Source of the DNA: Lytechinus pictus
Taxonomy: Eukaryota
Direction of reading: 5' to 3'
DNA length: 64,000 nucleotides
NCBI RefSeq assembly: GCF_037042905.1
Contig: NC_087250.1
Span: 10,232,001 to 10,296,000, forward strand
The translations under genes were made by a program, and so were the position numbers. Of this stretch, positions 13,201 to 56,911 are shown in pieces (within the stretch, counting starts at the first letter, position 1; each line of letters opens with the position of its first letter). The notes under the pieces are model-generated. The model was not told where the DNA came from. It was given only the letters and a program-made list of their open reading frames with translations, and ran no database searches.

Positions 13201-15822
13201 AAATTCATGCAAGGTTTAGGCTGGTGTGTAAAATCAGTTACGACATGTAAAGTACTGTACATGACAGGCACAACGATTGCTCACTTGACATTTTTAGCCA
13301 GCTTTCGCAAGGCCATGCTTTTGCCCCCTAATTCACCACCTTTTTTCGTTTTTGCTAACTCTGCCTTCAGTTCCACATTCTTCTTCCTGCAGTAAAAGTG
13401 CAAGCGGGCATTGATGAACTTGTTCAACAGTTTTGATTTGATGTCATGACAGGTTGGCAGGTCGACATTCCTGTTGCAGAACTCTGCTTCGGCCACTAGA
13501 CGGGTCCTGACATTTGTGTTTTCTGTCAATGTGCATTGTAAACGGCGAAACATTAACTCAACATTTAGGAGCATGTCGTAAGCTTTAGACGAGATGTGCA
13601 TGAGACAACCTGTCTTGTATTCTTTAAGCCGACTGAGTTCTGATGCTTGGTGAATCTCCTCATCTGGTCCTCATGTCACAGCATTCATAGTTATACACAT
13701 GACGCAAGTTATTTCGTTACGTTTGATGCTGTGCAAACAATATCCTGCCAGATTGTACAGGCTGTCTCTTTCAGCTGGTGGTAGATCCTGTTTTGAAGTT
13801 GACTGCTGCTCTGAAAGATGGATGACAATCGGTGGCTCAACAGGCACTTCCACACGCTGTTCCAGAAAGTCTGCCAGGAACTCCCCATCATCTTGTTAGT
13901 TGTTGGTAGCTACCAGATCGTGGAAGAGTCAGAAATTGTGCATTGCTTATGAGCTTCAATGCATACTTGAACTCAAGTGGAGTTGGTACAGGCTTCCTGA
14001 GACGAACAGAAGAGAAGAGATTCTCCAGGCAGTGTTGGGTCAGCCGCGATGTCAACAGGAACGCATGTCCTGCACTCAGCAACTCCTCTGCGATGCTGAG
14101 AACTGATGTGGTAGATAAAATAACCCCGGTTTGTATACGTTTCCAATCGCCTTGTACTCCAATCTTCACTCCCTTGAATACCTCTATAAAATTTCTGAGA
14201 AACGTAGTGGCCTCCTCATACTTTCCTGGATCATGCTGGCTCAGACCCATCACTGGATTTCTACTTGTCATCAAGTTGAACCAGAGATCCAATAATTCGA
14301 TAAACCACGCTGTAGTCAAGTATGCTTCATCTCGCCCCTCTTTCTTCACAAGGTACGTCAATGCACAGCTTACATCATGACTAAGCACCCTTGTCGCATT
14401 TGACACTTTCATCTTGTCGAAGTGGGTTGGTGTGAGAGCAGCCATGTTGAGCTTTGGCGCCAGTTTGAGATCCAGATTTTCCTGAAATTTTCCAAGATCC
14501 TTCAGCGGCTCTACACATGCAACATCAGACTTGAGGCCAAATTTTGTGACTGTCTCTGCCGAAAAAGTGAACTGTTGACCATTCACGAGTGCTGCCTTGA
14601 TGTTCTTAAATAGATGTGGCACATCTGCCAAGAAGTGCAACCACTTTGCTGGGTCCTGCGGATGTGGAATTTTTGATTTTGTCCGGCAGTGCTTTCCACA
14701 TTTGATGCCAAAGCTCTTCCACATTGCACGGTTGGCACTCCCCATGTCACTTGCAACAGCTTCTACGTGAAGACCAAATTCGGACGATCGCTGTATGATA
14801 TCGAGGACAATATCCTTGAACACTGCCCCGTCTGTGGAGTTACTTGTGTAGTGATAACATACTGTCTGCTTCCATCGTGTTGTAATCCCTCCCAGCATGA
14901 ACACTAGTGCATGAGTAGCAGTTCCATCATGCTGGGGCAATGTCACACTCCCCATTAAATCACCACTACCAGCATCATACTCAACACTTGAGGTGAGGGA
15001 CATCTCATCCAGTGTAAGACAGCAAAGTCTCTCATCGGGATGCATGCCTTCCACCTTCAGTTTCAAGAAGTCAAACACCTGTCCTAGGACACCTGGTTGG
15101 AATGACACTTTTTCCATTCTTCTTCGGAGGGTTCTTTCTGATGGAAGCGGGTGATGCTGCTTGAGAAGAACTTTGTAGCCAGATGCACCACATGCAAACC
15201 TCAGCTGCAATGCCTTTTTTACAGTACTTGAGGACCATTCCACTCCTCTCATTCCACCTCGAGAAAGGGCACGTATCTGATCACTTCCAAACAACCTTGA
15301 GAACCGTGACTCTTGCTTCGCTTTGGCCTTTATAACCTTTATACGAGTTTTTCGCATCCGGCGCATATCTGCTTTCAGTTCTTTCATGCGGACTTTCATC
15401 TTTGTCAGCCTTCCTTCAAGCTTTATATTTCGCTGGGTATCTTGCAGAGTCTCTTGTTTACTAGCAGAGTCTTCAGCTATATACATGTACGTGAAAGAGA
15501 GAAAAAAGAAATGGGAAATAATAAATATTGATGCTCCTGCATGTTTAATTTCCATGGCAATAAAGGCACTGAATAGCAATAATTGAAGGGATCTACTATT
15601 AATGGTATCCAGACTATTATCACTTATTCCTTGAAGATGATTACCCGTAACTGTTAATGAATAATGAGCACCTTTTTTGTCCTTCAAAACAATTCAATTT
15701 TTATAAATCGAAGCACACATGACTCACAACCTCCCCCACAAAAAATAAATTAATTAAAAATCAAATAAAATAAATAAAAATAAAATTTAAAAAATGAATG
15801 AATAAATACAAATAATCATTAA

Positions 15823-16863: not shown

Positions 16864-19794
16864 TAAAAAAAAATAAAAAAATAAAAAAATCATGATAATA
16901 ATAAGATTTAAGTTAAAAAATAAAAAAAACACTAATTTGCACTAACCATATAAAATTCATTTCATCAGATACTAGGAAACATATTTTTGAGAATGTGCAT
17001 ACACGCAAGAAACATAATATAAAAATCAATCAGGCAAGGTAATTTCATCAATAAAAATAATAACCTACATTTCTATGTACATCCAAAAGAAATCTCGTGA
17101 AGCAATATTCAAATTTTCCCCATCAACAGGATAACCCAAAATACATTCGTTTACTGGTTTCCTATTAAATATAACCGATAACAAAAGGCATTCTTACAAC
17201 AGCCAGTTGAGATGTCCTCGGGTGGAGTGGCAGAGTAGCTATGGTCTTGCGCCTTGTGTCCAGTACTACAAGTAGGTCTAGTCGAAGTTGACACCCGCTT
17301 CTTTGGAGACTTCCGTACCTTGGGAGGCTTACTGAAGCAGAAAATATTTGGTACTGCAGTCGTCTTCAGCTTCACCTTCTTATCTTGTCGCCCAAGCTCA
17401 AACTGATGAATGTCAAAATGTACCTGTATTAAAACAAAACAAAATGAAACCGAAAAAATAAGTTTTGCCCTATTCGGTAGATGTATGAACAAATTAAAAC
17501 ATAATAAATATACCATTAATAAAAAAAGAACTGAAAATATTACATGTACTTGACGGTTTCATTTGCATATCTATAAAAATCAGGTGATGGCAGCAACGTC
17601 ATCATTAAAGCTCGCCTTTAGACTAATTACTTTATATAAATTTTAACTTTTAGTCATCGCTTAATGACTTGGAGATTAGTCATGTTAGTTCATTCTTTAA
17701 AACAAAGATAACTCTACTCAATACAAGGTGAAGCTGCCCGTCTTTCTTAGATTTATTTTTCAATTAACCATGCATTTTGATCAAGCCACCCACAAAAGTT
17801 TTGCTAACGCTAACAGCCAAAACACCTGTTAAAATAATTTTTATTCAGCACAGCAATAACTTTAAACTTTAGTAGGCCTAACGATAGGCCTACATTTAAG
17901 AACAAATAAATCAGGTCAGGAGTAAGGTCATCAAATTGCAGGGTTTTCTTAAAATTCGGGTGGGATTTTGGAAGCTCCTATCCACTCATACAATGCACAA
18001 GGTTATGAATAACCTTGTGCTGCTCTAGTACCCTCATAACCGTGTGTACAGAATCTAGGCACCACACAACCAATACTAAAAATAAATCTTTCAAATGATT
18101 ACTGCACTGTAACAAAGAATTTAAAAAAAATCATGAATGATCTGTCTTTCATTTATATCTTGGCTGTTGTGTTGTTTTTTATTCACCAGAATCCAGATAG
18201 CTCAGATCTTAAATTTTGAGCATATTTTTGTGAGGCCCTCTAGCTGTATTGATTTGGTTTTTACAATTCCATATTATAGTGGGCCTTGCAATGTGCTCAG
18301 AATTCAAGATTTGAGCGTTCTTGTGAATATATAACAACCTGACAGCCAAGTCCAAGATAATCATAATTTAAATTAATATTTAGGCCTAAATTTTAATAAT
18401 TCATTTTTTTTGTTACAAAAATAACATTTTTTTAAGACTCCTTTTTTTATGTTGTGTACTGCGTTCAGCAGTAATTCACAACTGCTTGATGTACTGTAGT
18501 CTGTTTTCGATTTATGATATCTCCAATGGATGCTTGCCGTCACAGACACAGTCATGTCAGTGAGTAACTTCACTTGCACTTTTCACGCACCCATAAAATC
18601 ATAACATAAAAGTACATACATGGGACTAACCTCGCACAAAAACGTCGACGAAGTCGGTTTCCATCCCACTCTCCGCACTTTATTTTCCCATAGTTTCCTT
18701 CTTTCAGGATTACTAGGAAATCTAAACATGTGGAATCCCTTCTCTGACCGATTCGTGCATCCAAGAGCACAACAGCCCGTCATTTTTCAGGTATTCAGGA
18801 AGCGTTTAGATTCTCTCAGCGGTGTACATCACGTCGTCGGCTATCATGAATTGGAAACAAAATGGCACCCGCAGATCACGTGACCAATTTTTTTGGACCT
18901 GTCATGATATGTCGCAACACTAAATGTAAGAAAAGCCCAAGTCCTCCAGGACTTGGGCTTTTCTTACACTCATACCAGATTTTCCTCCTTTATTTACATG
19001 ATTTAAAGCATTTCCACACACAAAGATACTACCACGGACTTTGTCTCTAATTCAGTACCATAATTAACAGTCTTTACTCCATTATAATCGTCAAATCTTG
19101 TTCTTTAAGTTGTTACCAAAATGTTCATGCACATCACGTTTTAACACTTTGGTAACGAAAAATCCGGTCCGGCATAGGCGCGCACTATCGGCACATTTTG
19201 GTTAAAAAAAATATTTTACCTAAATGTGCAGTTACCGTTTTTGGTAATTTACCAAAATGTGCCGTACCAAGTGGAACGAATTAACTTATGAAACGTTGAG
19301 TGCGACAATTCAGTTACCGAAGTCGTTACTGGACGCCTGAAAATATATAGTTCGAGAAGAGTGGATGATTTACGCTTTACATTATTTGTTCTACTTCTAG
19401 TAATCATAGTAATGTTTAAATTTTATTTTGGCCGGTGATCTTTTCTGCTTGTTTAGTGATTCTCCAAGTTTTCTTCTTTTTATTTCTAAATTCCTTCATG
19501 CCACCATGCAAACTTGAAACGTACCTAATACAAAACCTAATACAAATGCCAACAACAGACAAATTTAAAAGAAATATTGATATATTTTGGCAAAGAAACC
19601 ACTTTGAGCTTCCATGACTCCCGATCACGCAAGCTCATGAAGTAGTAGTTTTCAGTGACCAATCATACAAGAAACGACCGGGAATTACAGGCTTGCGCCT
19701 TCATCCCGTACCAGATGATGATGATGATGATGATTGACTTCTTGCCACATCACGGTAACTATCATGGAAACCTTGAGTGTAATTGGCTTCTGTG

Positions 19795-20897: not shown

Positions 20898-21141
20898 CCC
20901 TGCAAAAACTCTGGTGTTGATTTAACACCAGACCGGAATCTATATATGTCCACACCAGAGAAGTGTTAAACAACAACCGGTTTCGTTTTGATCTAACACA
21001 AGATAGGTGTTTATACAACACCAATTAGTATTAAAACAGCATCGGTTTGATTCCAAACCGGTGTTGTTACAATATACTGTTCTGGTGTGGACATATATAG
21101 ACTCCGGGCTGGTGTTAAATCAACACCGGAGTTTTGCAGTG
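20898..21141. mobile_element. CACTG-ended MITE (CACTA/EnSpm-like family); other copies at 22677-23153, ~23497-24198, 24771-33711 (split) and 56638-56857
   Basis: Long TIR CACTGCAAAAACTCCGGTGTTGATTTAACACCAGCCCGGAATCT and a shared ~240-bp body. Confidence 0.85.
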
Positions 21142-22087
21142 TACATAAATCAAAGGTACAAGTAAACGAGCAAAAACACATTACAAATTATTTTCAAATT
21201 CATAATCACGATGAGAACTTCTTTATTTTAATGACAAACTTTCACAGATTAAACTACTCTACATTATCATTATAGGCCTACAATCATGATTAGCTGTTTA
21301 TCAGCATGGTCATGATTAACATTAAACCCCGACAACAATAGATATATATATATAATGAACTATTACAAATGTATGGACTTGAATACATTCAGGCAGTAAA
21401 ATCTGTAATACAATACATATCATTCAACAAAACATATTGAATTATAAAGTAAATTATCGATTGACGAAAGCCAATAGAGATTAGCGAGTTATTATAACAA
21501 TGTTATAGTATTATATGCAGTAAAATAGAAATTATTCATTGTTTACGATATACTGCAACAAATGACAATGAAAATTTAGTTTTAAATTAGATTTCCTTTC
21601 TTTTATTACAGGAAATAGATCAATCAACAAAACAAAAACAAAACATTTTACATGTCTTGAAGAGTTAGATGTGCAATCCAAGGTTATGATAGTCCTTAAA
21701 ATCCAAATAAAAATCCAAGTTGGTTGGCGAAACTTCCTTAAATTAAAATTCACAATGATGGCGATGATGAAATTGATGTTGAAGCACGATGAATAACAAG
21801 AGTCACTGTATAACGAGTTGAAATGTCTGTGAAGATGATGTTGATGATGATTAACAGTCAATTTCAGCAATCCATGGATTGAAAAGCGTTCATTAAAACA
21901 GCTTGATGATCTCGATGAGAGCTGAGAATTCCTCTCTCAAAGTAACTGCAAACAGTTCATTGATGGCGTGCAAACAATTTCACAGAAGATAAATGTTGTA
22001 TTCCAGTTGGAAATAAACTATATGCTCTGACATAAAGTCTGGTGTGAAACTCTGAGTTCTGATGATGTCCTTGAAGAAACTGCCAGC

Positions 22088-22190: not shown

Positions 22191-22794
22191 ACCTCAGTGA
22201 TATTAACAGTGTAAACAACATAAATAATCCTTTTGTTCTTTTCACTGCGGCCACTAGCAGACTAGGAATCTATTGTATAGCCATCTCTATTCAGAAATAA
22301 CAAAGGTTACTCAGCCTATTAAAGAACATGCCTAACAAAGCTTTACTGAGACATTCTGGTATATTCTTAATCATTCTATGCTATGAATATCCTTATAGAG
22401 GAAATAACTTAATAAATTAATGTAATTGCTCTTAAAATTCTACTTAGATATAACATCATGGACAATAAAGGCATATCATTTGCATGAGCGTGGAACGGCA
22501 GTAAAATGTTATACATCATATAGCAAGCATTTCATCAGAATCTCATAGCAAGAGAATGCAACATAGAAGGATTAATTGTGATCGTCCTTTGCGTATACCG
22601 TAGGCTATATTATTTTGAAGAAAAATCGCTTTCTTTGCTTTGTTTTACATTTCCATGATTCCTCGTTATTCTGGCACACTGAAAAAACTCCGGTGTTGAT
22701 TTAACACCAGCCCGGAATCTATACATGTCCACACCAGAGTAGTGTTACACAACACCAGTTTGGTTTTGGTCTAACATTAGATATGTGTTTATAC

Positions 22795-23023
22795 CAAGGG
22801 CGGAAATCTCTCCCAAAATGTAGGGGGACCAGGGGTGGAAAATTTGACAAGCAGAAAAAAAAAGGTTATCACCCAAAAAGTATAGGTCATCTCGTCCAAA
22901 ATACATGTTTTATTTCGATTTTGAATGATGTATTTCTTTCAATCATAATAGACCAAAAGTAGTAGGGGGACATTTGATATAGTGTCCCCCCTACCCCCCC
23001 CCCCCCTCGGATTTTCGCCCATC
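22795..23023. mobile_element. hAT-type MITE nested in the CACTG MITE 22677-23153
   Basis: Perfect TSD GTTTATAC with ends CAAGGGCGGAAATC / GATTTTCGCCCATC. Confidence 0.8.
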
Positions 23024-23714
23024 GTTTATACAACACCAATTAGTATTAATACAGCATCGGTTTGATTCCAAACTGGTGTTATATCAATACTTCTCGGGTG
23101 TGGATATATAGATTCCGGGCTGGTGTTAAATCAACACCGGAGTTTTTGCAGTGCAGTTAATATTTTCCCTCGTAAATGACCTTGAAATCAATATAAACCC
23201 TATGCAACAAATATTGAAACAAATTCACAATTTTGGAAATATACACCTTACAAAGTGTGAAAACATTGAGTGATCATGCAAGCCTGCGCGAAGATCAAAT
23301 GACATAAAATTCAGAAAGTACACAGACCATCCTGTATCCTTTATTATGTTTATGTTTTAGCCTATGTGTGTGAGGATGAGTGCGAGAGGGTGTGTGTGTG
23401 TGTGTGTGCGTATGCAGGGTTCGCGGAACGGGAGACTGTAGCCAGTTGGATCCCCCGTTCCCCAATTATAGTTTTCAAAACGTGTACAAAAACGTATACT
23501 GCAATAAAAAAAAAACACCGGTGTCGATTTAACACCAGCCTGGTATCTATATATTTGGGGCCACTCCAGAGAAGTGTTGAAACAACACCAGTTAAGAATC
23601 AAACCGATATTGGTTTAACACAAATTGGTCAGTTGCTTAAATGCCAAATTGGTGTTAGCCAAACGCCAAACCGGTGTTGTTTCAACGCTTCTCTGGTGTG
23701 GACCGATATAGATA

Positions 23715-23991
23715 GTGGGTGCGTCGTGATCTAGTGGTTCTGACTCTTGCCTTTGAAACAGAGGGTCCTGGGTTCGAATCCTAGCTATGGCGTCTTTTCC
23801 TTCAGCAAGAAATTTATCCACACTGTGTTGCACTCGACCCAGGTGAGATGAATGGGTACCCGACAGGAGTAATCCCTTGCATGCACTGAGCTCCGGTGAT
23901 GGTAGCTCAAGCTAAAGCCGGGGTAATAATATCAGCGCTTTGTATCCTCAGGCAAAAAGCGCTTTATAAATCCAGCTATTGTTATTATTAT
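23715..23991 (+). mobile_element. tRNA-derived SINE (related copy at 30139-30437)
   Basis: A/B boxes (TGATCTAGTGG, GGTTCGAATCC), a body shared with the 30139 copy, an (ATT)n tail, and a flanking TATAGATA duplication. Confidence 0.85.
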
Positions 23992-24160: not shown

Positions 24161-25864
24161 CAGGCTGGTGTTGAATTAACACTGGCGTTTTAACAGTGTA
24201 CAAATTACCATCAAGGTGTGGTTTTATGCATGTTCATCCACCCTTCCCGAGTTCTGGCAACCCCCCCTCCCACACACACTTTCAATATCATTCGTTCCCC
24301 GGCCCTGCATGGTAGGCCTATGTGTGCTCAAAGTTTGTTCACCTACTGGATTATGTGGAGGGGGGGGGGGGTTATCTGACAGTTGCATTTTTCGACAATG
24401 TGAATGTTGCTTCACCGTATTCTTTTCATTAAATTGCAAACTCGTCCTCTGCCATGCAGCTCGTCCACTCACCACATATGGTCTACCTTCATTTAGTCTA
24501 ATATGCAATTCCGCCCATCAACATTTCGTCCAACAACCATTTGGTCCAATAACATTTGGTCCGATCATCACTTCGTCTAATCCCCTAATCACCAGTTTGT
24601 CTATGACCATTTCGTCTGTACGGTTTTATTTTCATTCATTTTGCCTCATTATGACTTAGTCTGATTAGACCAACTGGTATTAGACGAAATGGCAATTAGA
24701 CCATGTGACCATGCAAATGAAAATAAACAATTTTTCCAGCAGGAATATAGTCCGTTCAATTCCGTTGAAGACGCAAAAACTCCGGTGTTGAGTTAACACC
24801 AGCCTGGAATCTATATATAATATGTCCACACAAGAGAGGCAGCGGCGTAACAGGGGTCGGTGGCCAAAAATTTCCCGGTCATATAGCATACTTACCTCGT
24901 ACTAGTGCGAGTGGGTCATATCATGGTATGAACAGGCGTAATGGTGTTAGTAATGAGGCGACAATTTTGAGAGGGCCAGATATTGCGTATCGGGCAGAAT
25001 TTATCTTTAAAAAATATGTTGCGAGCGAAGCGAGCGAGCAAACATTTTGACATTTTTAATACAAAAATTCAATTTTGTGATAGAATTTGACATGATATCC
25101 AGATAATATATTTCAATCTTCTCTCTTTTCATTCCTTTTTTGTGTGTTCTGTACGCCACTGTGAAGAGGATTTTTGCAGCAGTAGCGTGAAGAGTAAAAA
25201 AAAAAAAAAAAAAAAACGAGGGGCACAGTATGGCGCATGTGCTAAAAGGCTGCTTAATATGAATCCCGAGCGAGCGAAGCGAGCGAGAAAAATAAAATTC
25301 AACATTTTCATTAGAAACTAACTATGAGATATTTTTGACATTATATTCAGTAAATAAAATAATAGTCCTACACTTTTCCTCTGCTTTTCTTTCCTCCTTT
25401 TTTTTTGTTTGCAGAACTTTGGGGGCCATGGGCAACCCTTGCATACTCATATACGGTAGTGCTATGCGGTTGGGGTCCTGGGCGGAGCCCCCGGAACTTT
25501 CTGATATCAAAGCCATTTAAACCTCGCAGATTGCCGCTATTTTTAATAAGATCGCGGGTAAATACAGGATATAGCTTTTACACAACACATTTATTCAACC
25601 CAGTTGCGTAATGAACCAAATATTTTGAGAAGGCAAAACATAGCAATGTGGGAAAATTTGTAAAAAGTCGCCAGCAAGCAAAGCGAGCTGGAAAAAAAAT
25701 TAATTGCCTATTGAAATTAAATTCTAATTATGTGATAGATTTTTCCATTATATTCAGCAAATAACAAATTTCATTGTTTCCATTCGTTTCATTACTTTGT
25801 CTCCTATAATTTCTTTTATTTCCCCTTAGGTGTGGAACCAGCCCCCCCCCCACACCTGTACGCC

Positions 25865-27362
25865 CAGTGGCGTACCGTGGGTCACGGCATTGGGGGGGCA
25901 CCATAATTTTTTTTAGTCACTTAGTGAGCGCGCGAAGCCAGTTGCCAGATAAACTGACCTAATACAGACATTTTAAGGACAGTGCCATTAAACGGATATG
26001 TATATCACTGATCGCATAATGCGAGCGCGAAGCGCGAGCTGATTTTTTTTTTATATTCAGACCTAAAAAGGGATATTATAAGCAAATTTTTGTAATCATG
26101 ATACATATCTATCTCGCTAAACAAACAATGCGAGCGCGAAGAAGTTTACATATTGGAACTTTGTATAGACTACATTTTAGGAATCCATTAAGAGCATACA
26201 TATCTCACCATAGTCATCTAATGCGAGTGCCAAGCGCTTGCTGATTTTGTTACAATTATATACATCTAAACAGATGAAACACTTTTAGTCATTGTAATCA
26301 TGATTATCACACGCATCACACTAATAAAATATTGCGAGCGCGAAGCGCGAGCTGAAAAATATAGGAAATTCAGATCTGAAGTGGACATTTTAAGGCTTGT
26401 TTGTAGGAATTCACGAAGACCATGCGTATTTTATTAACCAAATGATGCGAGCGCGAAGCGCGAGCTGAAATTTTTGTATATATTGACCACAAACAGGGAT
26501 ATTTTAAGGACTCCTTTTTTTAAGGAATCCATTAAGAGTACACAAATCTCACCATAGTCATCTAATGCGAACGCCAAGCGCATACTGATTTTTTAGAATT
26601 ACATCTAAACACATGAAGCACTTTTTGCAGTCATTGTAATCATAGTTATCATACGCATTTTACTAATCAATTAATGCGAGCGCGTAGCGCGAGCTGAAAA
26701 ACATAGGAAATTCAGACCTGAAGAGGACACTTTAAGGCTTGTTTGTAGGAATTAACAAAGACCATGCGTATTTCACCAACCAAATGATGCAAGTGCGAAT
26801 CGCAAGCTGAAAATTTTTGATATTCAGATTAGAAAAAAAGGACATTTTAAGGACTGATTTTAGGAATTCATGAAGAGCATACATATCTCACCAATCCACT
26901 AATGCGAACATAAGCACGGGCAGGAAATGTTTTATATTAAGACCTTAATATGGGACAATCACTTTAAGTAATCATGAAAAAGAAGCATATGTCACTACAT
27001 AAAACAATAATTCGAAGTGCGAGGAAATCTATTTGGTGTATATTGACTTGAAAACGGAAGGTTTTAGTACAATAGGATTATATATCTCGTTAAACAGACA
27101 ATGGGAGCACCAGGAACAATGAAGACTTAGGCCCTGAGCAAATTGCGTTTCATAAAGTTATGAAATTTTTGAAATGTAATATAACATAACATAATTATTA
27201 TATAACATTATAATGAACAATAATTTCTTCTTTCCCATTACGTTTCTCTCCCTCTCTCTCTCTTCTCCTTTTCCCCGTTTTTTTTTCGTTTTTTTTTCTT
27301 TTGCCAGCCGATTGGGGGGGGGTGGGCACGTGCCCCCCATGCCCCCCGTAGTTACGCCACTG
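25865..27362. mobile_element. 1.5-kb hAT-type non-autonomous element rich in GCGAGCGCGAAGCGCGAGC motifs
   Basis: CAGTGGCGTA...TACGCCACTG ends with a perfect TSD TGTACGCC. Inverted family members are at 53835-55137 and 44801-~53590. Confidence 0.9.
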
Positions 27363-27644
27363 TGTACGCCAATGATTGAATGAAAAGCTTAATGTAGGAA
27401 AGGTCCCTATACAGGGGGCGTTGGCGTTATAGAGCCATTTGAATGTATGGGGACATCCCGATAGACCGCGGGTCCGATATACCGCGGGTCCGATAGTCCG
27501 CAGTGTGTGTAAAATTATGATCAGATGTATCAAATGTCATCGAGAGGTCCAAAGGTCAAATGATACGAGACCATGGGGTGCTATCAGGTGCGGATCCATG
27601 GGGGTCGAGGGGGAACTGCCTCACCCCCCCCCCCCACCTCCAGC

Positions 27645-28480
27645 TAAAAAAAAAAGAGGGGGAAGAGGGGAAAAGAAGAGAATAGAAAAGAGAGTAAGGG
27701 GGAGGAAGGAAGAGAAGAAAAGGGAAAAGAGAGAGGAAAAGAGAGACAGAAAAGACGGTGAAAAGGGAGAAGAAAAGGGGGAAAGTGAAGAGAAAAAAGA
27801 GAGGAGGGAAAAGGAAGAGAATAAAAGAAAGGAGAAAGGAAAAGGAGGAAAAAGAAGAAGAAAAAAAGAGGAAGGAACAGAAGAATATTTAAATAGAGAG
27901 GAAGATGGGAAGAAAGATAAGGAAAAAAGAGAGAGAGAGAGAGGAAGAGGGGAAAAGAAGAGAAGAAACAGAGAGAGGAGAGGGAGAGAAGAAAAAAAAT
28001 TAAAAGAGAAAAAGGGGGAAAGGAAATAAAAAGAAAAAAGGGGGAAAAGAAAGGAGAAAGAAAAGGGGAAGGAAGAGAATAATATTTAAAAAGAGAGGAA
28101 GATGGGAACAAAGATAAGAAAAGAGAGAGAGAGGGGAATAGAGGAAAAGAGAAGAAAAGGGGAGAGAGTAAGGGGGAAGGAAGAGAAGAAAAAAGAGAAA
28201 AGAGAGAGGAAAAGAGAGAAAGAAAAGACGGGAAAATAGAAGAAACGTGGGAAAGAAAAGATAGGGGAAAAGAGAAGAAAAGGAAGAAAGGAAGACAAGA
28301 AAAAAAAAAGAAAAGGGGAAAATAAAGAGAAGAAAAGGAGAGAGAGAGAGAAGGAAGGAAAAGAAGAAAAGGGGAGAGGAAGAGGGGAAAGAAAGAGAGA
28401 AAGAAAGAGAAAGGAAGGGGAATGAGGATAAGAGAAAGAAAAAAAGAAAGAAACAAAAGGAGATGGGAAACGAAAGAGGG
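27645..28480. repeat. Polypurine low-complexity tract with an internal ~200-bp duplication
   Basis: The tract is almost purely A/G. AATATTTAAA..GAGAGGAAGATGGGAA occurs at ~27883 and ~28081. Confidence 0.85.
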
Positions 28481-30138
28481 AGATGTTGACCCGGACGTCG
28501 ATTTGATGTTTGAACTAGGTGGCGCCAAAATGACATTCGAACTATGGGGCGCCGAACTGATGTTTGAACTGGGAGGGGGGCGCGAAATTGATGTTCGAAC
28601 TATGGGAGCGCTGAATAGATGTTCGATCTAGCGGGGCACCAAATTGATGTTCGAACTAGAGGAGCGCTAATTTGAATTTTGACCATAATGCGACAAATAC
28701 ATGTTTCAGGGGGGGGGGGGGAGGGCAAAGTTATATTTCACATGGGGGCGCCAAGTTTATGTTCAACCGAGGGCGCCAAATTGACCTTGAACTTAGGGGG
28801 CTTCATGCAAATTCATTTTCGACCGGGGGCGCAACATTGCTCGTATTGCCTGTTTATAGTGAAATATATGTCCTGCCCAAAAAGCTTAAATTAATGCGGG
28901 TGAATTAAAATATCCCGTTTTTACGATAATAGACAAAAACAATGTTTTCGAGTTTTAAGTCTGTTTAGCGAGATAGATATCCTGTTCAGGGTCACAAAAA
29001 AGGGTTATTATCAAATCCAGCTCGCGCTACGCGCTCGCAATATTTCATCAATGAGGTATGCATCCTCTGCATCAATCCTACATGTAAGTGTTAGTGTTTT
29101 TCAAGTCAACATACATAGGCCGATCCACGGGGCAAATATTTTGCCCCCCCCCCCCCCCATGGTGGCGCAAAAAAGGGGTAAGAAACAGAAAACGAAGAGA
29201 AAAAGGACAAGCAATTAGAATAGGAATTATACCTTAGTTCTTCTTAAGTCAGTATATAAAAAATTGAGCTCGCGCTTCGCGCTGGCATCAATAATTTGTT
29301 TAGTTATATACGCATCCCGACCTCACAGTTTTTTTTAAGAGAACGAGAAGCACAAGCTGAAAATATTTGATATTCTAACCTGACAACTGAAAATGCATTC
29401 ATTTCTTAATAGATATGCATCGTGTTCATCATAACAACTACTAACATAGGCGAATCCAGGGGGCCCGAGGGCCCCTCCCCCTATTGACGGAGCAAATAAA
29501 TAGGGAAAAACGGGGAAAGAAAGACAAAAAGAAGGGGAAAGATAAAAGGAGGAAGACGAGTGAATAAAATAAGGTCAGGAGAAGACTTGAAAAATAATTT
29601 TTTAAATATTTAATGTCACTATATTAAAATTTCCCTCGCGCATCACGCGTGCATTGCCTGTTCGATGAGATACATATCTCGGTCAATAAAGGCTGATATA
29701 TAGTTCAAAAGATCAAGTTTTGAAGTCAATATACAAAACATAATTCAGCTCGGACATCGATCTTCATTTTTTTTGTTTTATTTGCCAATTTATTTATTTT
29801 AAGTGCTCTGGAAAATGTCCGTTTTATGGTGTGAATCAACATTTGCAACATTTTGTGCGCTCGCATTATTTGCTATGTAGGCCTACCTTTTGCCTTTATG
29901 TATTTCATATAAGATTATCTAAATATTCCTTTTCATGTGTCTCGATTCTAAAAAAAAATTAAGGCCTATGCTCACGCTGTGCTCTCGCATTTTGGTGAGT
30001 TATGTACACCTATACTGTATATTAATTCTATAACAAACTACCTAACCCCCCCCCCCCCCCCATTTAAACATTTCGAATCGCGATTTGCGCTCGCGTTATT
30101 TGCTAAAAATATATCAACCAATGAATCCTGGAGGAATA

Positions 30139-30437
30139 GTGGAGCGTTGTGGCCCAGTGGATTAGTCTTCGGACTTTGAAACAGAGGGTCGTGGGTTCGA
30201 ATCCCAGCCATGGCGTAATTTCCTTCAGCAAGAAATTTATCCAGCACACTGTGCTGCACTCAACCCAGGTGAGATGAATGGGTACCCGGTAGGAAGAAAT
30301 TCCTTGAATGCTTTGAGCGCCTAGGCAGCCCAGCTAAAGCCGGGGTAATAATAATAGCAGGGCCCGCTGGGAGAACAGTTTTCGGAACTGAAGCGGCTTC
30401 CCTGGGTAAATATACCTGTATTATTATTATTATTATC
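30139..30437 (+). mobile_element. tRNA-derived SINE
   Basis: TGGCCCAGTGG and GGTTCGAATCC boxes, an (ATT)n tail, and homology to 23715-23991. Confidence 0.85.
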
Positions 30438-33400
30438 ATAATCCTATTCATGATTATAAAAATACTTAAAATTTCCAGTTTTCAGGCCTCATACACTGTC
30501 AACAAATTCCACACACTCATTAGGCTTATTAGATTAATAAATATGAAATAAAATTTTTATGAATTCATAATAACTAAATTGTCCCTTTTTCATAAATAAA
30601 TATCGACACGTTTTATGAAAAGAAATAGAAGATAGTCATCATTCTTATATGATGACAAAATCAGCTCACGCTTCGCGCTCGCATCATTTATTTAGTGCTA
30701 TCCACATCGACGTCACAATTTCCCTATATACAAAGTGCTGTAAATAGTGCTTAAATTGACTCATTTCATATCGGAATTTCAAATATTATTTTCAACTCGC
30801 GCTCTGCGATCGCATTATTGATTTTCATGATGAAAAATGAAATGTATTCAGAATGCAGATTCTGTCTAACTCTAAAACACGCGCACGCATGTTTTTTTTA
30901 GATACGCAGCTTGATCTTATTCAAAACGTACTAAAATTATCCAGTTTCAGATCAGAATATCAAAAATTTTCTGCTCGAGCTTTGCGCTCGCATTATGAAG
31001 ACACTAAAAATTACCCATCCTTTTTCATGATTGACAAAACATGACTCGAGCGTCCTGTTGGGGGGTTTGAAATCTCATCTTTTTAGGTTGGAATATCAAA
31101 AATGTTCAGCTCGCGCTTCGCGCTCACATTATTTAATCGTTGAAATATATATCGTCTTAATGGCTAACTGCAAAACGTCAGGTCCCTTTTCGACTAGGCC
31201 AGAATGCCTATTTAAAGGTCAAGTCCATATCTATCACAACCTTGTATTTTTGTAATAAAAATGTCAGCATATTTGCTTGCTCGCTTCGCTCACTGGAAAC
31301 TTCTTATTAATTTTATGCGATACGCCATATCGAGCCCCCTCAAAATTGTTGGCTCATTACGCCACTGGAACAACCCCTTCAAAGAAAACAAAATCAACAT
31401 TGAGCGACCGATCGGGGAAAATATGGGTGAACAAAATTCGCCCCCTCATTTGCGGAAGCTGGGTCCGCCCCCGGAATTAGGCTTTCAAATACATCAAAAA
31501 TAAAAAAAAAATCAGATCGCGCTTCGCGTTCTCATTATATCTTTAGGCCTTGTGAAATACCTCAATGTGTTTTTCAAAATAAAATCTCAGATATTCTTTA
31601 ACTTCTACCCCCCCCCCCATTTCATTGATTGTTGTTATCTTGGTGCCCTCTACAAAAGTTCAACAAGACCCCCCCCCCTCGTGCACCCATGCTGAATAAA
31701 TACGCCACTAATGAGGAGAATGAGTCGATTGCTTCGAGATTGCATTATTCCCAAGAAGCTATCATTAATATTATTGAAGGCTATTCTAAAACAACTAGCA
31801 AAGAAACTACAGCTCCCGTTCACACAATATTCTAGTAGGGCCTACTCTCGTGAGAAATTAAACCAAATTGAACCCCCCCCCCCCATCGCTCGCGCTTCGC
31901 GCTCCCATTGATATTTCATTATTATATTCATGGATTTTTTTTTAAGAACACATTAAAAGAGTGGTCTTTAATTGCCTTTTTAAAATGTGATTATAAGATA
32001 ATTCAAAATCCATGTAAGGCACTTAAGTTAGCCTGGCTGGAAGGGAGTGGGTGCAATTTTTTGAAAAGTACACATGGGCGCCAAGAATCAGGTCAAATTT
32101 GGCCCCCCCCCCCCCCTTCTCACCAAATCCTGGATCCGCGCCTGGGTTCTATAACAATAACCAAATTAGGGCAATCATCCACTGACAACTACTTCAAGGA
32201 AAATATGATCCCCATATTTTTACCGCCGGGGACTGTTACCCCCAGAAATTTACCCTCGAGACAATTACCCCGGATAATTACCCTTAGTACGGAGCCTTTA
32301 AAATGCAATCGACATGGCGTGATACTTTATCTTGCCATGTATAATTAATAAGCTTATTATTTCGACATGGCGATATATTCTATCTTATCAAGTCGATATG
32401 TCGACATGGCGAGATCTGAAGTGTACAAGTCCCGGCCAGAATCCCGATATATAATATATAAATTAACATATAACTTGTTACGAGTCGACTTGGCAAGATA
32501 AATATCTCACCATGTTGACGTATAACTTTTATATGTGGACTTGGCAGGTATCTCGCCATGCCGACATTATAAGCTTATTTAGTCGATATGGCAAGATAAA
32601 GTATCTCGCCATGTCGTCAAGTCAGTGGCATTTGAAAGGTAATTGGCGTCTAGAGGGTAAATTTCCGGGGGGGGGGGGGGGGGGGTAACAGTCCCCGACG
32701 ATAAAAATATGGGGATAATATTTTCCTTGAAGTAGTTGTCAGGGGGCGATTGTCCATTCGGTCATCGTTATAGAACCCCATGGACTCGTATCATTGACCG
32801 TTTGACCTCTTGATGACATTGGATCTCACTATAACCTGATCATAATTTTACACACACCTCGGACTATCGGACCCGCGGACTATCGGACCCGCGGTCTATC
32901 GGACCCGCGGTCTATCGGACCCGCGGACTATCGGACCCGCGGACTATCGGACCCGCGGTGTATCGGGCTGTAACCGAATGTATAGGCCTATAGATGAAGA
33001 GCCCCTACTGCGTGGGGTCTGGGGCAAAGCCCTTGTAGCTTTTTTTGCATAAAATTTAGCAAGCTTGTAAAGCACAATGTTGTATGCAGTCCACATGGTC
33101 CATCTTTCTTCCCGCTCTTTATTTTCTATCCTCGGCAGCCCGGTCGTGTTATTAAGAGGTTTTTTTTTCTTGTTCTTTGTTTTACAAGTTAGCTTTTGAC
33201 TAATTCCATTCTACCTTCATTTCCCGCTATTGTTTGCCATTTTGTCATCTTTACATTTATTTCCCATCATGCTATTGCTTTCCATAGGCCTAGTATTTCG
33301 GAATGATTTGTTCTTTCTCAAATGTTCTTCTTTCGGTCCTTTTCCCGCTTTCCTTTCTTTTCCATAAAAAAAATGATAATTTCTTCGTTTTCTTTTCATT

Positions 33401-33688
33401 TTTCCCTTTCCTCCTTCCCCCTTCCCTTTCTTCCCCCTCCCTTTTCTTTTTTCCCCCGTTTTTTTTTCCCGGTGAAATCCGCCAGGGGGGCAGCTTGCCC
33501 CCCTGCCCCCCACCTGTTACGCCACTGCAGAGAGGTGTGAAACAACACCAGTTTGATTTTGGTCTAACACCAGATAGGTGTTTATACAACACCAATTAGT
33601 ATTAAAACAGCATTGGTTTGATTCCAAACTGATGATATTTCAATACTGTTCTGGTGTGGACATGTATAGATTCCGGGCTGGTGTTAAA

Positions 33689-36600
33689 TCAACACCGGAG
33701 TTTTTGCAGTGTAATTACTCCCATTACGGTCACAACACAGGCGCTAATTGCTAAGACAGCAACCGTAATTATTAAATAAAGGGAAGAACTGGAAAGTCTA
33801 GACGGATCTGTTTCTGCACCGCACCCCACTTTGCTAGCCCACTCTGAAACTGGGAAAGAATTTTCAGACCTCATTTCTCCTGCGTTTCGTCCATGTCCAA
33901 TGGCGATTATGGCGAACTTGTACTCAATCCAGGTGCCAAAGTCTGGCGCGAGGCAAGAATAGTTTCCAGAGACGTTTTCACTGATGAATTCAAGAATAAG
34001 ACTGCCATCCGCACTAACCTCAATGGAACGATTCGGTATGGTTGGAGAAAGTGTCTTTAAAATCATCTTATTTGGAAGAGCCCACAATATGGCACTTTTG
34101 TCGATCACATTCAAAGGACAGGGTAATATCAATTGGGAGTTGTCAACATTTACGAATAAAGTTGGATATTCAATCGAGCAAGTCATGTTATAGGTTTGGA
34201 ACTCGCATTCTCCATATACTGCCAGGGTGGCACATGGGACACCCTCTACGTTGCCTGACATCCAATTGCAAAATGACCGTAAGTGACAGTCACAACGCCA
34301 CGGATTCGAAGAGAGGTTCAATTGAATATACCTTGCTGTAACTGGCAATGCGTTCTGGTGTATCAAGGTCAAGTCGTTGTTGTTCAAGTTGAGATGGAAT
34401 AAAGATTTAGTGGTTACGAAAGAACCTTCCTTAATAACCATGATTTCATTATTGTCAAGGTTCAGATAGTACAGTCTGAACAGTCCGAGAAAGCTATCCT
34501 CCTCAATCATCCTGATTTTATTCCAAGATAGCTTCAAACGGATTAGCTTTGGATGCATTGTGTACTTGAATTGATCTGGTACTGAGTAAAAACAATTGTG
34601 GGTTAAATCAAGAAGACGGAGGGATCCAGGATTAAACCGGGGAAATGTTCTGGTAAGTGAGTTTTGAGAGAACACTATGCTTATCAGGGGAGCCTGGATA
34701 ACGAATGAAGAGTTAAGGGACCATGACTTGACAGCAGAATTGTTGGTCATGTTCAGATATTCAATGCTGCTCGAAGGAGACGTGAGCAATGTTGGAAAGA
34801 ACCCGAAGTCGTCCTTAAAGTGAGAGATTTCAAGATGCTTGACTGGGAACGAATCGAATTGGCCAGTAATCTTCACCGGATTTCCAGTGAGATCGAGGTA
34901 ATGCAGGCGTGGGCACATCGAGAAACACGTCCCAGACAAATAAACTATTTTGTTCCACTGGAGGCTAATTGTATGCAGTCCAGTGAGACCGAAAAGCGTG
35001 TCTTCAGATAAGGAAGAAAGGACGTTGTGTTGGAGACGTAGCGTACTTAGCTGGGAAGCTGACTGAAAAGTGAACGGTGCAATGTATCGAAGTGCATTAT
35101 GCGATATATCAAAATATTTTAAGGACTGTCCTATGTATGGTTCATTTGAGATCGCTACAATCTCATTTCTTCTCAAAGATAACAAAATAATATGTGTCAT
35201 GTATGTCAAACAGGAAATGTCATTTTTTATTTTGTTCTCTTCTAGGTTGACGTGCGTTAGAGCTGAGGAGAAAACAGGATTACCCCTTGCTTCATTCCCG
35301 CGAAGATTAAGATGTCGAAGCTGAAGTAGGTTTTCAGTTGAGTTTCGGTGAATTCTCAAAATGTTGTTATTTTCGAGAATTAGTGTAATGAGTCGGTTTC
35401 TTGCGGGTAAAGTTGGGAATCGTCTCAACATATTATTTGAGGCATACAGAGTTCGTAAAACCGGAATCCGACCTATATCTTCTTGTTCAATATCAGATAT
35501 CTGATTTGAGCTGAGGATGACCTTATCTAATGTTGGAAGGAGTGTTAAACACGGAACAATAGTAAGTTTATTTCCAGACAGGTCAAGTGTATCAAGTTTG
35601 GGAAAAGACAGTGTATCCCTAGCTATATGCCGTATGCTATTTTGGGATAAATTGAGGAAGTGAAGTTGTGGTAAGGAAGGTAGACGGTCAAGTTCTACCA
35701 GGAGATTTTTTTCTAAACGAAGATGTGATAGATTGGTGAGATTGCTCATAACTGATTTATCCCATACAGTTATCTTGTTGCAGAAGAGGAACAGGCTCAT
35801 GAGATTGGGGAGGTTGCGAATGTGACTTAAACTTGACAGGAGGTTTTCACCGAAATCGATGTGTGTTAGGTTATTGCAAGTCGTCAAGTCATCAAAGCTT
35901 ATGTTCCTAAGGGAATTTTTATAAGCATATATACTTCTCAGTAATAAACACTCTGGGATAATCAATTCAGACAAATCGTTCTCTGAGAGGTTTAAGTTCA
36001 CCAATAGAGGATAGGATGATGAAAGATTCGACGTTATCAAACTAGTGGTAATTGAATTACGATTTACATTAAGACTACGCAGACTTCTTAGCGGAATAAC
36101 AGGAGCTACCAGTAATCTATTTCCAATCAAATTCAATACTTCAAGCTTTGTCAGGTTCGCAAGGGATCCAATACCAAGTGTTTTAATTCTATTTTCGTCC
36201 AGAAAAAGCACTTGTAATTCCGGAAGATTTCGAATTGCCACAATGTCAATGATATTGTTGTGCCTCAAATCTATTCGTTGTAAATGTATAAGATTTTGAA
36301 ATGAATTCCTGTTCATTCTTCGAATCCGATTGAATGGAAGAATCAGTTTCCGAAGATTTGAAAATCCAGATAACGAGTCAAGAACTTCAATGAGGCCAAA
36401 TGACATATCTAATACAGTTACGTATCTCGGATACAAAAATGTCCCGGCTGAAAAATCAGTAAGAGGAATGCCTTTGAACTCAGCAAGTTTTATGCAATAT
36501 GGTACGACAATTGGGTCTTCAAGAGGGTTCCATGTGAAACGAAAGATATTCAATTCCTGGTGTAAAAATTGCGTCGGCATTCTAGCAATCCAGTTCCAAG

Positions 36601-37042
36601 ATAAATCGACAGTAGTCAGTTTGGGTAACACGGGTTCTGATGGAAAAGTGGTTAAGTAATTCCCGCGAAACGAAATGTGTTTAAGTTCAAGAAGACCTGC
36701 AAAGGATCCTTCCTCTATGTGGGCTATAAAGTTGTTATCCAGGACTAGGGTATTCATGTCGGATTGGCAAGATAGATCATTAACGCTGATTTTCCGCAGT
36801 GTACCAAAGACTAACAGAAAGGTTGTCGTCGAACATGGTGTGCTCGAGGGAATTTTCTCTGCCGAGGAACAATCCACGATCCTTTCCTCTACTGTCCTGG
36901 TGCAACGGCATTTTCTTGGGCAGTTGCTGATCATTTGTACATTAATGGGCACCAAGATTAAGACAATGAATATAGGTAGGCCTATTGTCAAAGAACAAGA
37001 AGCACGAGATCTTACGCACGGCATGCACAGCGGTGCCATCAT
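33689..37042 (-). CDS. Single-exon LRR-Ig-transmembrane protein (signal peptide, LRRNT, ~30 LRRs, LRRCT, Ig-like domain, TM, almost no cytoplasmic tail)
   Basis: A 1117-aa uninterrupted ORF with a hydrophobic N-terminus, a CPRKCRC cap, LxxLxLxxN repeats, NPWRCDC, Ig motifs (LILPCP, ILW, DGSLIL, SGNYSC) and the TM segment LYLIITVAVLAISACVVTVMGVI. Confidence 0.92.
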   Translation of the reverse strand: MMAPLCMPCVRSRASCSLTIGLPIFIVLILVPINVQMISNCPRKCRCTRTVEERIVDCSSAEKIPSSTPCSTTTFLLVFGTLRKISVNDLSCQSDMNTLVLDNNFIAHIEEGSFAGLLELKHISFRGNYLTTFPSEPVLPKLTTVDLSWNWIARMPTQFLHQELNIFRFTWNPLEDPIVVPYCIKLAEFKGIPLTDFSAGTFLYPRYVTVLDMSFGLIEVLDSLSGFSNLRKLILPFNRIRRMNRNSFQNLIHLQRIDLRHNNIIDIVAIRNLPELQVLFLDENRIKTLGIGSLANLTKLEVLNLIGNRLLVAPVIPLRSLRSLNVNRNSITTSLITSNLSSSYPLLVNLNLSENDLSELIIPECLLLRSIYAYKNSLRNISFDDLTTCNNLTHIDFGENLLSSLSHIRNLPNLMSLFLFCNKITVWDKSVMSNLTNLSHLRLEKNLLVELDRLPSLPQLHFLNLSQNSIRHIARDTLSFPKLDTLDLSGNKLTIVPCLTLLPTLDKVILSSNQISDIEQEDIGRIPVLRTLYASNNMLRRFPTLPARNRLITLILENNNILRIHRNSTENLLQLRHLNLRGNEARGNPVFSSALTHVNLEENKIKNDISCLTYMTHIILLSLRRNEIVAISNEPYIGQSLKYFDISHNALRYIAPFTFQSASQLSTLRLQHNVLSSLSEDTLFGLTGLHTISLQWNKIVYLSGTCFSMCPRLHYLDLTGNPVKITGQFDSFPVKHLEISHFKDDFGFFPTLLTSPSSSIEYLNMTNNSAVKSWSLNSSFVIQAPLISIVFSQNSLTRTFPRFNPGSLRLLDLTHNCFYSVPDQFKYTMHPKLIRLKLSWNKIRMIEEDSFLGLFRLYYLNLDNNEIMVIKEGSFVTTKSLFHLNLNNNDLTLIHQNALPVTARYIQLNLSSNPWRCDCHLRSFCNWMSGNVEGVPCATLAVYGECEFQTYNMTCSIEYPTLFVNVDNSQLILPCPLNVIDKSAILWALPNKMILKTLSPTIPNRSIEVSADGSLILEFISENVSGNYSCLAPDFGTWIEYKFAIIAIGHGRNAGEMRSENSFPVSEWASKVGCGAETDPSRLSSSSLYLIITVAVLAISACVVTVMGVITLQKLRC

Positions 37043-55799: not shown

Positions 55800-56911
55800 T
55801 TATACTACCACAACCGACGCAGGACCTTCATTTTTATTATATATATATATATATATTGAAGGGGAAATTTACCCTGCCAATAAGTTGGCTTGAATAAAAG
55901 CTGAAAATTACAACAACAAAAACGGTAGAAAAAGAAGAAGATAATGATGAAGAAGAAGAAGAAGGAGGAGGAGGAGAAGTTGAAGAACCTTCTTGTTAAT
56001 TTTCTTCCTCATTGAAGATCATAGCGAAGTTGGCTCAGGTCGTATAAGAGTAGGAGGAAGCTCTAGTACTGCTGGGCGTATTTCGCGAAGTATAGGGCTT
56101 CTCACTTCTTATGCAATATGTTTTTGTTTTTCAAAATCAAACTTTAAATAATAAAGGTACCATATTTTATGTAAGTATCACACAACACGGCAACTTTGAA
56201 AAGCGCTTGAAAATTGGGTCATTTAAAAGTAAAAGGAAAGAATAAAACAAGCGTACGTGATTCACATATTTTCATTTTTAGAGTCCTATTATTCGAATGT
56301 AAGGGGACGTCTTATGATAAAATTGTGTGAATCGATGAAATAACACAAAAAATAGACAATAAAAACGATATCTCGGGTTACCCCCCCCCCACACACACAC
56401 ACACACACGCACCCTCTCTCCCTCACACACACACACACACACACACACGAGGTAAAGGCGAAATTTGATAATATTGAGATTGTCAATGCATGATCCGTGA
56501 AAAGTGCGGGTTCGCTCCCGAATTCTTTAAATTCACCTTTTTCCTGTAATTTAGGGAAGCACTTTTCCAATGCAGATTCTTAAGAAATAGACCCAGTCTC
56601 TCCGTCCACTTTTTGATGAATTCTTGGACACGCCCTGCACTGCAAAAACTCTGGTGCTGATTTAACACCAGAGAAAAGTGTTAAACAACACTGCAGTTTC
56701 GTTTTGGTCTAACACCAGATAAGTGATTATACAACACCAATTAGTATAAAAACAGCATCGGTTTGATTCCAAACTGGTGTTATTTCAATACTTCTCTGGT
56801 GTGGACATAATATAGATTCCGGGCTGGTGTTAAATCAACACCGGAGTTTTTGCAGTGCGATGCTCTAACGAACTATTCCTCGACCCTTCGGCAATGCAGA
56901 TCTCATTTCTC

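Follow-up and report, generated by a model that had tools for sequence, protein, structure and literature searches.

What becomes of a membrane protein when a transposon settles in its last codons? The question is raised by an intronless open reading frame (ORF) on the minus strand of a 64,000-nt stretch of the Lytechinus pictus genome (RefSeq assembly GCF_037042905.1, contig NC_087250.1, positions 10,232,001-10,296,000; hereafter the window, with positions counted from its first letter). The ORF encodes a surface protein with leucine-rich repeats (LRRs) and an immunoglobulin (Ig)-like module, and its 3' end lies inside a miniature inverted-repeat transposable element (MITE). The locus probably represents a transposable element (TE)-derived C-terminus, that is, a tail swap in a naturally tail-poor echinoid LRR-Ig surface protein whose gene is still used.

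The junction can be read directly. On the minus strand the ORF ends with ...GGA GTA ATT ACA CTG CAA AAA CTC CGG TGT TGA, and the MITE supplies the final seven codons (TLQKLRC) and the stop; in the threonine codon ACA the A comes from the host and the CA from the MITE. A first-pass annotation, made from the letters of the window, had assigned the tail and stop codon, (T)LQKLRC and TGA, to a MITE terminal inverted repeat beginning with CACTG (33711-33689), and both the sequence and the other copies of the repeat agree with this. The host frame thus continues into TE sequence that provides residues and the stop, which is what defines a TE-derived C-terminus. Among the three phases of the MITE terminus, the one used by the ORF closes after 6 codons and the others after 8 and 23. 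The A of the target occupies a first codon position; the original frame must hence have continued past it, and the insertion displaced one codon or more along with the former stop. The nearest AATAAA lies 427 nt past the present stop.

Upstream of the MITE, the reading frame is intact over ~1100 codons, as had been noted at first pass, and altogether 1117 codons are free of stops from the ATG at 37042. The encoded protein (33689..37042) is laid out as a signal peptide, LRRNT, ~28 LRRs, LRRCT, an Ig-like module, a membrane helix and a five-residue tail. Pfam matches were confined to leucine-rich repeats (LRR_8, 3e-67 over nine stretches; LRR_4, 2.4e-30), and no TIR domain was matched in the ORF protein (P0001) at E values up to 0.01. 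Both LRR caps are present. The last 225 aa hold an LRRCT-like NPWRCDC motif, which is kept among paralogs together with the cysteines that follow it, a module of the Ig pattern C...W...L...G-Y-C, a conserved membrane-proximal CG and a 25-residue hydrophobic stretch. The module scored 0.0019 with V-set_CD47 and 0.0093 with Ig_3, both below the curated cut-offs; its C83, W95, L123, G134, Y136 and C138 are invariant in all 19 sequences of the family alignment, and an Ig-like identity is probable.

The AlphaFold2 (AF2) model of the last 225 aa, built from 19 sequences, had a mean predicted local distance difference test (pLDDT) score of 45.6, with 52-61 in a beta-rich region (residues 69-155); its sole confident part was a terminal helix (residues 191-224, pLDDT 75-89). 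The hydrophobic stretch together with this predicted helix points to a membrane anchor, of either the transmembrane or the glycosylphosphatidylinositol (GPI) type. Basic residues had been reported after the helix, and the K and R of QKLRC are indeed found there.

The element that ends the ORF belongs to a large repeat family. Its 32-nt terminus CACTGCAAAAACTCCGGTGTTGATTTAACACC occurs six times in the window at ≤3 mismatches, compared with no occurrence in 100 shuffles, and bounds complete elements at 20898-21142, 22677-23153 and 56638-56857. A search of the 811.7 Mb of the species' own genome gave at least 1523 candidate copies, of which 40 were scored and 20 were fetched to build a consensus. 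This consensus is 242 bp long with long terminal inverted repeats; its ends read CACTGCAAAAACTC(T/C)GGTGTTGATTTAACACCAG... and ...CTGGTGTTAAATCAACACCGGAGTTTTTGCAGTG and qualify as such repeats. Identical dinucleotides flank 18 of the 20 copies (TA/TA in 13, TG/TG in 3 and CA/CA in 2), and the flanks of the other two are unequal. The gene's copy is flanked by TA on the gene side; on the far side the dinucleotide is unreadable. Terminal inverted repeats, a mostly TA duplication, short length, lack of coding sequence and high copy number together form the signature of a Tc1/mariner-type MITE. By these features we take it to be putatively Stowaway-like. Stowaway-like/Tc1-mariner MITEs share with this element its non-coding 242 bp, the terminal inverted repeats, the 2-bp, mostly TA duplication and the more than 1500 candidate copies, whereas the TG/TG (3/20) and CA/CA (2/20) duplications set it apart. 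The MITE copy at 22677-23153 likewise contains a nested insert (477 bp instead of 242); the gene's copy is thus not the only one of this MITE to carry one.

That the MITE in the gene is heavily nested, as the first-pass annotation stated, was borne out. It is split in two by an element of 8,688 bp that is flanked by terminal inverted repeats and an 8-bp duplication (Table 1). The inverted repeats, CAGCGGCGTAACAGG (at 24840, plus strand) and CAGTGGCGTAACAGG (minus strand, next to 33528), match at 14 of 15 positions, and the two copies of the duplication, AAGAGAGG (24832-24839) and CAGAGAGG (33528-33535), at 7 of 8. Both ends of the nested element are multi-copy in the genome (at least 1561 and at least 2081 candidates). 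At other genomic sites the two end sequences lie only 1.5-3.8 kb apart; the copy here has therefore been swollen by further insertions. Its interior held no ORF with a Pfam match and no transposase ORF among the ORFs scanned. The element appears hAT-like, an assignment to superfamily that follows from the length of the target duplication alone. The far end of the MITE itself is damaged, its last 4 nt and the adjoining TA copy not being recognisable. Two more features of this region were seen: long, purine-rich (GA) low-complexity tracts, inverted to each other, at 27600-28500 and 33290-33520, near the two ends of the nested element, and a 16-bp tandem repeat, CCGCGGACTATCGGAC, at 32841-32984.

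Table 1 Features of the LRR-Ig gene, the MITE at its end and the DNA beyond (window positions).
Feature	Positions	Strand	Detail
Intronless ORF, 1117 codons + stop	33689..37042	minus	ATG at 37042, TGA at 33689-33691
Donor-like AG-GT site, CAAG/GTATAT	34330..34333	minus	codon 904, where P0002 leaves the ORF (34332)
Hydrophobic membrane segment LYLIITVAVLAISACVVTVMGVITL, 25 residues	33707..33781	minus	final TL wholly/partly MITE-encoded; followed by QKLRC + stop
TA target-site copy, gene side	33712..33713		flank of the MITE terminus
MITE-encoded ORF end, (A)CA CTG CAA AAA CTC CGG TGT TGA = (T)LQKLRC + stop	33689..33711	minus	CACTG starts at 33711
MITE right piece, consensus ~58-242, terminal inverted repeat intact	33528..33711	plus	10/184 mismatches to subfamily consensus
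Nested hAT-like element (putative), non-autonomous, 8,688 bp	24840..33527		15-nt terminal inverted repeats (14/15), 8-bp duplication (24832-24839 / 33528-33535)
MITE left piece	24773..24839	plus	4/62 mismatches + 5-nt insertion; terminal CACT and TA copy unrecognisable
Single-copy flank past the MITE, presumed original 3' continuation of the gene	24708..24772	minus	frames close after 30, 40 and 4 codons
Older interspersed repeat, 77-83% identical to other copies	24430..24707		65 nt past the MITE site; 40 scored of at least 2393 candidates

The sequence of events that would account for this anatomy is short. A Tc1/mariner-type MITE would have inserted at a TA exactly at the membrane/cytosol boundary of one member of the gene family, after which translation would read 23 nt into the MITE inverted repeat and add TLQKLRC and TGA in place of the former tail. 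The predicted product is a type I membrane protein that displays the same ectodomain; with the helix complete and K and R after it, it should still insert in the membrane. Later, the hAT-like non-autonomous element and further repeats would have inserted into the MITE. An unspliced 3' untranslated region would consequently run into repeat DNA.

To judge whether the gene has remained in use, we compared the age of the insertion with the survival of the frame. When compared with a consensus built from the 20 copies closest to c20, the gene's MITE copy has 16 differences in 246 positions (6.5%), and these include subfamily markers common to 4-12 of the 20 other copies, for example a C at consensus position 15 (12/20) and a G at 86 (11/20). 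A consensus built only from the 11 most similar copies, and so biased in favour of the gene's copy, still leaves 14 differences in 246 positions (5.7%; Poisson confidence interval 3.1-9.5%) and, in addition, the 5-nt insertion; the age so obtained rests on these 14 substitutions, assumed to postdate the insertion. The best match elsewhere in the genome reaches only 95% identity. The insertion is hence not very recent, as the first-pass annotation had concluded from the nesting.

Neutral decay was simulated by placing random substitutions, half of them transitions, on the ORF, with 3000 replicates for each value of divergence (d). The frame stayed open in 9.6% of replicates at d = 0.02, 3.2% at 0.03, 0.67% at 0.045 and 0.23% at 0.06; the simulation covers substitutions only, and indels would lower these figures. 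P0002 (XP_054757277.1), a protein from a second haplotype or assembly, shows the frame open there too, across the same 903 codons, with 886 of 905 residues identical and one 3-aa indel. The frame has therefore stayed open longer than neutral DNA very probably would, suggesting that the tail-swapped gene is still used, and the evidence moderately favours selection having kept the ORF after the insertion. The hint of selection after truncation given at first pass is strengthened to that degree: an open frame is unlikely under neutrality (3.2-0.2% at divergences of 3-6%), which makes for moderate and not decisive support.

A gene that is dying would explain the same anatomy if the MITE and 8.7 kb of repeats had disabled 3' end formation or function, the frame being open only for lack of time. 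Such a gene would fit the absence of the full-length protein from the protein collections and a 3' region that is almost wholly repeat DNA, and were the true divergence since insertion ~2%, the frame would be open in nearly a tenth of the neutral simulations (9.6%). At the measured 5.7%, however, the chance falls to ~0.3%, rising only to ~3% at the lower limit of 3.1%. No frameshift has occurred in 3351 nt of the ORF, whereas the 246-nt MITE copy has acquired a 5-nt insertion and terminal damage. Furthermore, the family-invariant Cys, Trp and Gly-Tyr-Cys positions are all retained, and the second haplotype is open over its 903 codons. On this evidence we consider a dying gene unlikely.

The annotation record bears on a second alternative, in which the MITE is bypassed by splicing. 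A donor in or at the end of the ORF, such as the AG/GT at 34332, would join a downstream exon, so that the C-terminus would lie elsewhere and the product might be a secreted, LRR-only form. The whole-protein query in the ortholog search returned P0002 only, a 906-aa protein from an older RefSeq model, which matches the ORF for 903 codons, adds one residue not encoded in it and leaves it exactly at CAAG/GTATAT. This model is a RefSeq prediction of unstated support. The 214 codons past 34332 are open and keep every conserved LRRCT, Ig-like and anchor feature, which would be surprising for a part that is always removed by splicing. The closest full-length paralog is also informative: its current RefSeq model (P0152, 1133 aa, from the gene at locus L003) is unspliced through the tail to the stop. 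Moreover, no receptor-tail domain was found by a Pfam scan of the 67 same-strand ORFs of at least 55 aa in the 25.7 kb downstream, where the only matches were to a THAP domain and a TNP-like transposase of another transposon. A splice bypass is thus quite improbable. Among the sequencing runs listed, none that contained part of the stretch was RNA: the nine that did are all presumed DNA, with shares of at most 0.23, and 12 presumed-RNA contig runs gave shares of 0.00-0.04.

To see what the MITE replaced, we turned to the relatives of the gene. Queried with the C-terminal 236 aa, the genome gave 26 places including the gene itself (63 candidates scored), most of them in open frames of 1100-1250 aa, and the closest were 30-32% identical. 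Nineteen paralogs were fetched and 18 aligned (alignment A2); the one excluded, L038, is distant (E = 1.1e-5) and has a long, unrelated hydrophilic C-terminus. Sixteen of the 18 have a short, moderately hydrophobic C-terminus that lies at the stop or a few residues from it and resembles a GPI-attachment signal. A long membrane segment like that of the gene under study was seen only in L002 and L003, where it is followed by tails of 28 and 22 aa, both lacking a Pfam domain. In the alignment, the MITE junction coincides with the point where these two pass from the membrane segment to C-x-R-x-K. L003 lies at G000:C18:11418611-11419321 (genome and contig handles ours), and P0003, the cluster representative of P0152, is 37% identical to the query. 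Beyond this genome, the homologs P0004, P0006, P0009, P0010 and P0012 from other echinoids, including Diadema antillarum, likewise have hydrophobic C-termini and end no more than ~10 residues from the hydrophobic stretch. Neither a TIR nor another tail domain was detected in P0152, P0009 and P0004 (Pfam, E up to 1).

These C-termini show how little there was to remove. A comparison of paralogs for longer C-termini, which the first-pass annotation had suggested, gave them in L002 and L003 and a short hydrophobic end in the remaining 16; the same comparison in other species yielded none among the five homologs. Its claim that the insertion removed the original tail stands as far as the displaced codon or codons and stop are concerned, and does not extend to a signalling tail, since the flank past the MITE closes after a few tens of codons at most (Table 1). 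This flank had no other genomic match among 40 scored of at least 2393 candidates. No recognisable CAGTG and TA are present at the far MITE end, and the empty site can therefore not be rebuilt with confidence. Judged from the two nearest paralogs, the lost tail was most likely 20-30 residues long, and by the flank it would have had at most 40 residues, unless host DNA was deleted.

The first proposal, in which the MITE deprived a signalling receptor of its cytoplasmic domain and turned it into a decoy for signalling-competent relatives, is very improbable: more distant LRR-Ig genes with long tails do exist (L038 in this genome and P0093 elsewhere) and the damaged far end of the MITE may have cost some host DNA, but a cytoplasmic signalling domain occurs in none of the 18 nearest paralogs and none of the five cross-species homologs, the flank closes within 40 codons in all frames with no tail domain downstream, and a family without a signalling tail has nothing of that kind to lose.

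Returning to the tail swap in a gene that is still used, its outcome may have gone beyond tolerance. The MITE terminus could have been domesticated, the LQKLRC end with its stop-transfer charges and C-terminal cysteine being selectively kept as a distinct tail-less variant beside the tailed paralogs L002 and L003. We put this forward tentatively, as a possibility on the doubtful side.

Several observations weigh against the tail swap or limit how far it can be carried. The only database protein of the gene, P0002, is without the LRRCT-Ig-anchor part, residues 880-1117 found no match in the protein collections (614-1955 aa and 30-613 aa), and the full ORF product is not on record as a protein; the absence of these residues means that the current annotation may not treat the ORF as this protein. 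The MITE-encoded C-terminus is known here from genomic sequence alone. The Ig assignment is based on sub-threshold Pfam matches and conserved residues, and the AF2 model of the C-terminal part is poor (mean pLDDT 45.6). Part of the 5.7% divergence may reflect subfamily difference and not age, and at d = 0.02 the frame would be open in ~10% of simulations. Lastly, with the far MITE end damaged, a deletion of host DNA at the insertion, and hence a longer lost tail, is possible.

TE-derived C-termini as such have precedents. TE exonization is known, for example, from the wheat 'Mariam' element and other MITE-like insertions into coding exons (PMC6824096, PMC7438880). The common feature with TE exonization is that a transposon is read in frame and gives the last residues and the stop of a host protein. 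Here, unlike in TE exonization, no new splice site is needed, as the insertion lies in the last codons of an intronless sea-urchin surface-protein gene. The mechanism is already well known; here its host is a member of an unstudied echinoid LRR-Ig family.

LRR-Ig (LIG) cell-surface proteins include LINGO, AMIGO, LRIG and Kekkon. Compared by layout, they share with the gene a signal peptide, the LRRNT-LRR-LRRCT order, an Ig-like module and a membrane anchor, whereas the sea-urchin family has far more LRRs (an ectodomain of ~1000 aa) and most of its members have a hydrophobic end resembling a GPI signal. With Toll-like receptors the family shares large intronless LRR ectodomain genes and the form of a multigene family in sea urchins; it differs in having the Ig-like module and no TIR domain in any member tested. 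RP105/CD180 is a Toll-like-receptor-like protein with an LRR ectodomain and a very short cytoplasmic tail, and is tail-less by descent within a signalling family. The short tail is common to both; here, in contrast, the whole family is without signalling tails, and the transposon exchanged no more than the final residues.

The locus offers a clean, datable case in which a transposon rewrites the last residues of a membrane protein without destroying the protein. Because the tails of the family were short from the outset, the event says little about receptor signalling. Its wider interest lies in the family, which is sizeable in the sea urchin and consists of intronless LRR-Ig genes whose anchors are GPI-like or tail-less and which are automatically labelled 'toll-like receptor' or 'artichoke-like' despite having no TIR domain; such mislabelling matters for counts of immune-receptor repertoires. 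Among the matches seen, which came from Lytechinus and Diadema, the family appears echinoid-specific, its members being intronless surface proteins of ~1100-1150 aa with an LRR ectodomain, one Ig-like module and a hydrophobic anchor. Nothing relevant to sea-urchin LRR-Ig/GPI families or to L. pictus transposons was present among the listed results of the literature search.

The RefSeq names given to the family in L. pictus are 'protein artichoke-like', 'toll-like receptor 3', 'toll-like receptor 9' and 'LRRC4B-like'. P0003 and P0152 bear the names 'toll-like receptor 3' and 'toll-like receptor 9', and their Pfam matches are LRRs and a weak Ig_3, with no TIR domain; the name looks like a carry-over from LRR similarity. 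Some members lie in tandem. Paralogs with GPI-like ends form arrays of intronless frames of ~1120-1160 aa, one at G000:C18:8.86-9.06 Mb (L004-L006, L008, L009 and L032) and one at G000:C1:23.80-23.82 Mb (L007, L010 and L031). Some members of the C18 array have an extra, divergent C-terminal extension of 20-30 residues (...FFFRNYNCIFSGSF...) and others are without it, which suggests that C-terminal remodelling may be common in the family.

Other repeats were noted downstream of the gene. Another MITE-like terminus, ACACTGTTAAAACGCCAGTGTTAATTCAACACCAG, is found at 24170-24196 on the minus strand, ~600 nt past the insertion site, and is related to the CACTGCAAAAAC family but distinct from it. Directly after a diverged MITE copy (23520-23715), a tRNA-like stretch (...GTGATCTAGTGGTTCTGAC...GGGTTCGAATCC...) at 23715-23800 on the plus strand looks like the head of a tRNA-derived short interspersed nuclear element. 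Further downstream of the LRR gene, a 601-aa frame on the minus strand (13891-15693) matches two domains, TNP-like RNase H (3.3e-30) and GTP-binding insertion (8.4e-10). A THAP domain (3.1e-09) is found in another frame, of 67 aa, on the same strand (18586-18786); taken together, the two resemble a P-element/THAP9-like transposase gene or what is left of one.

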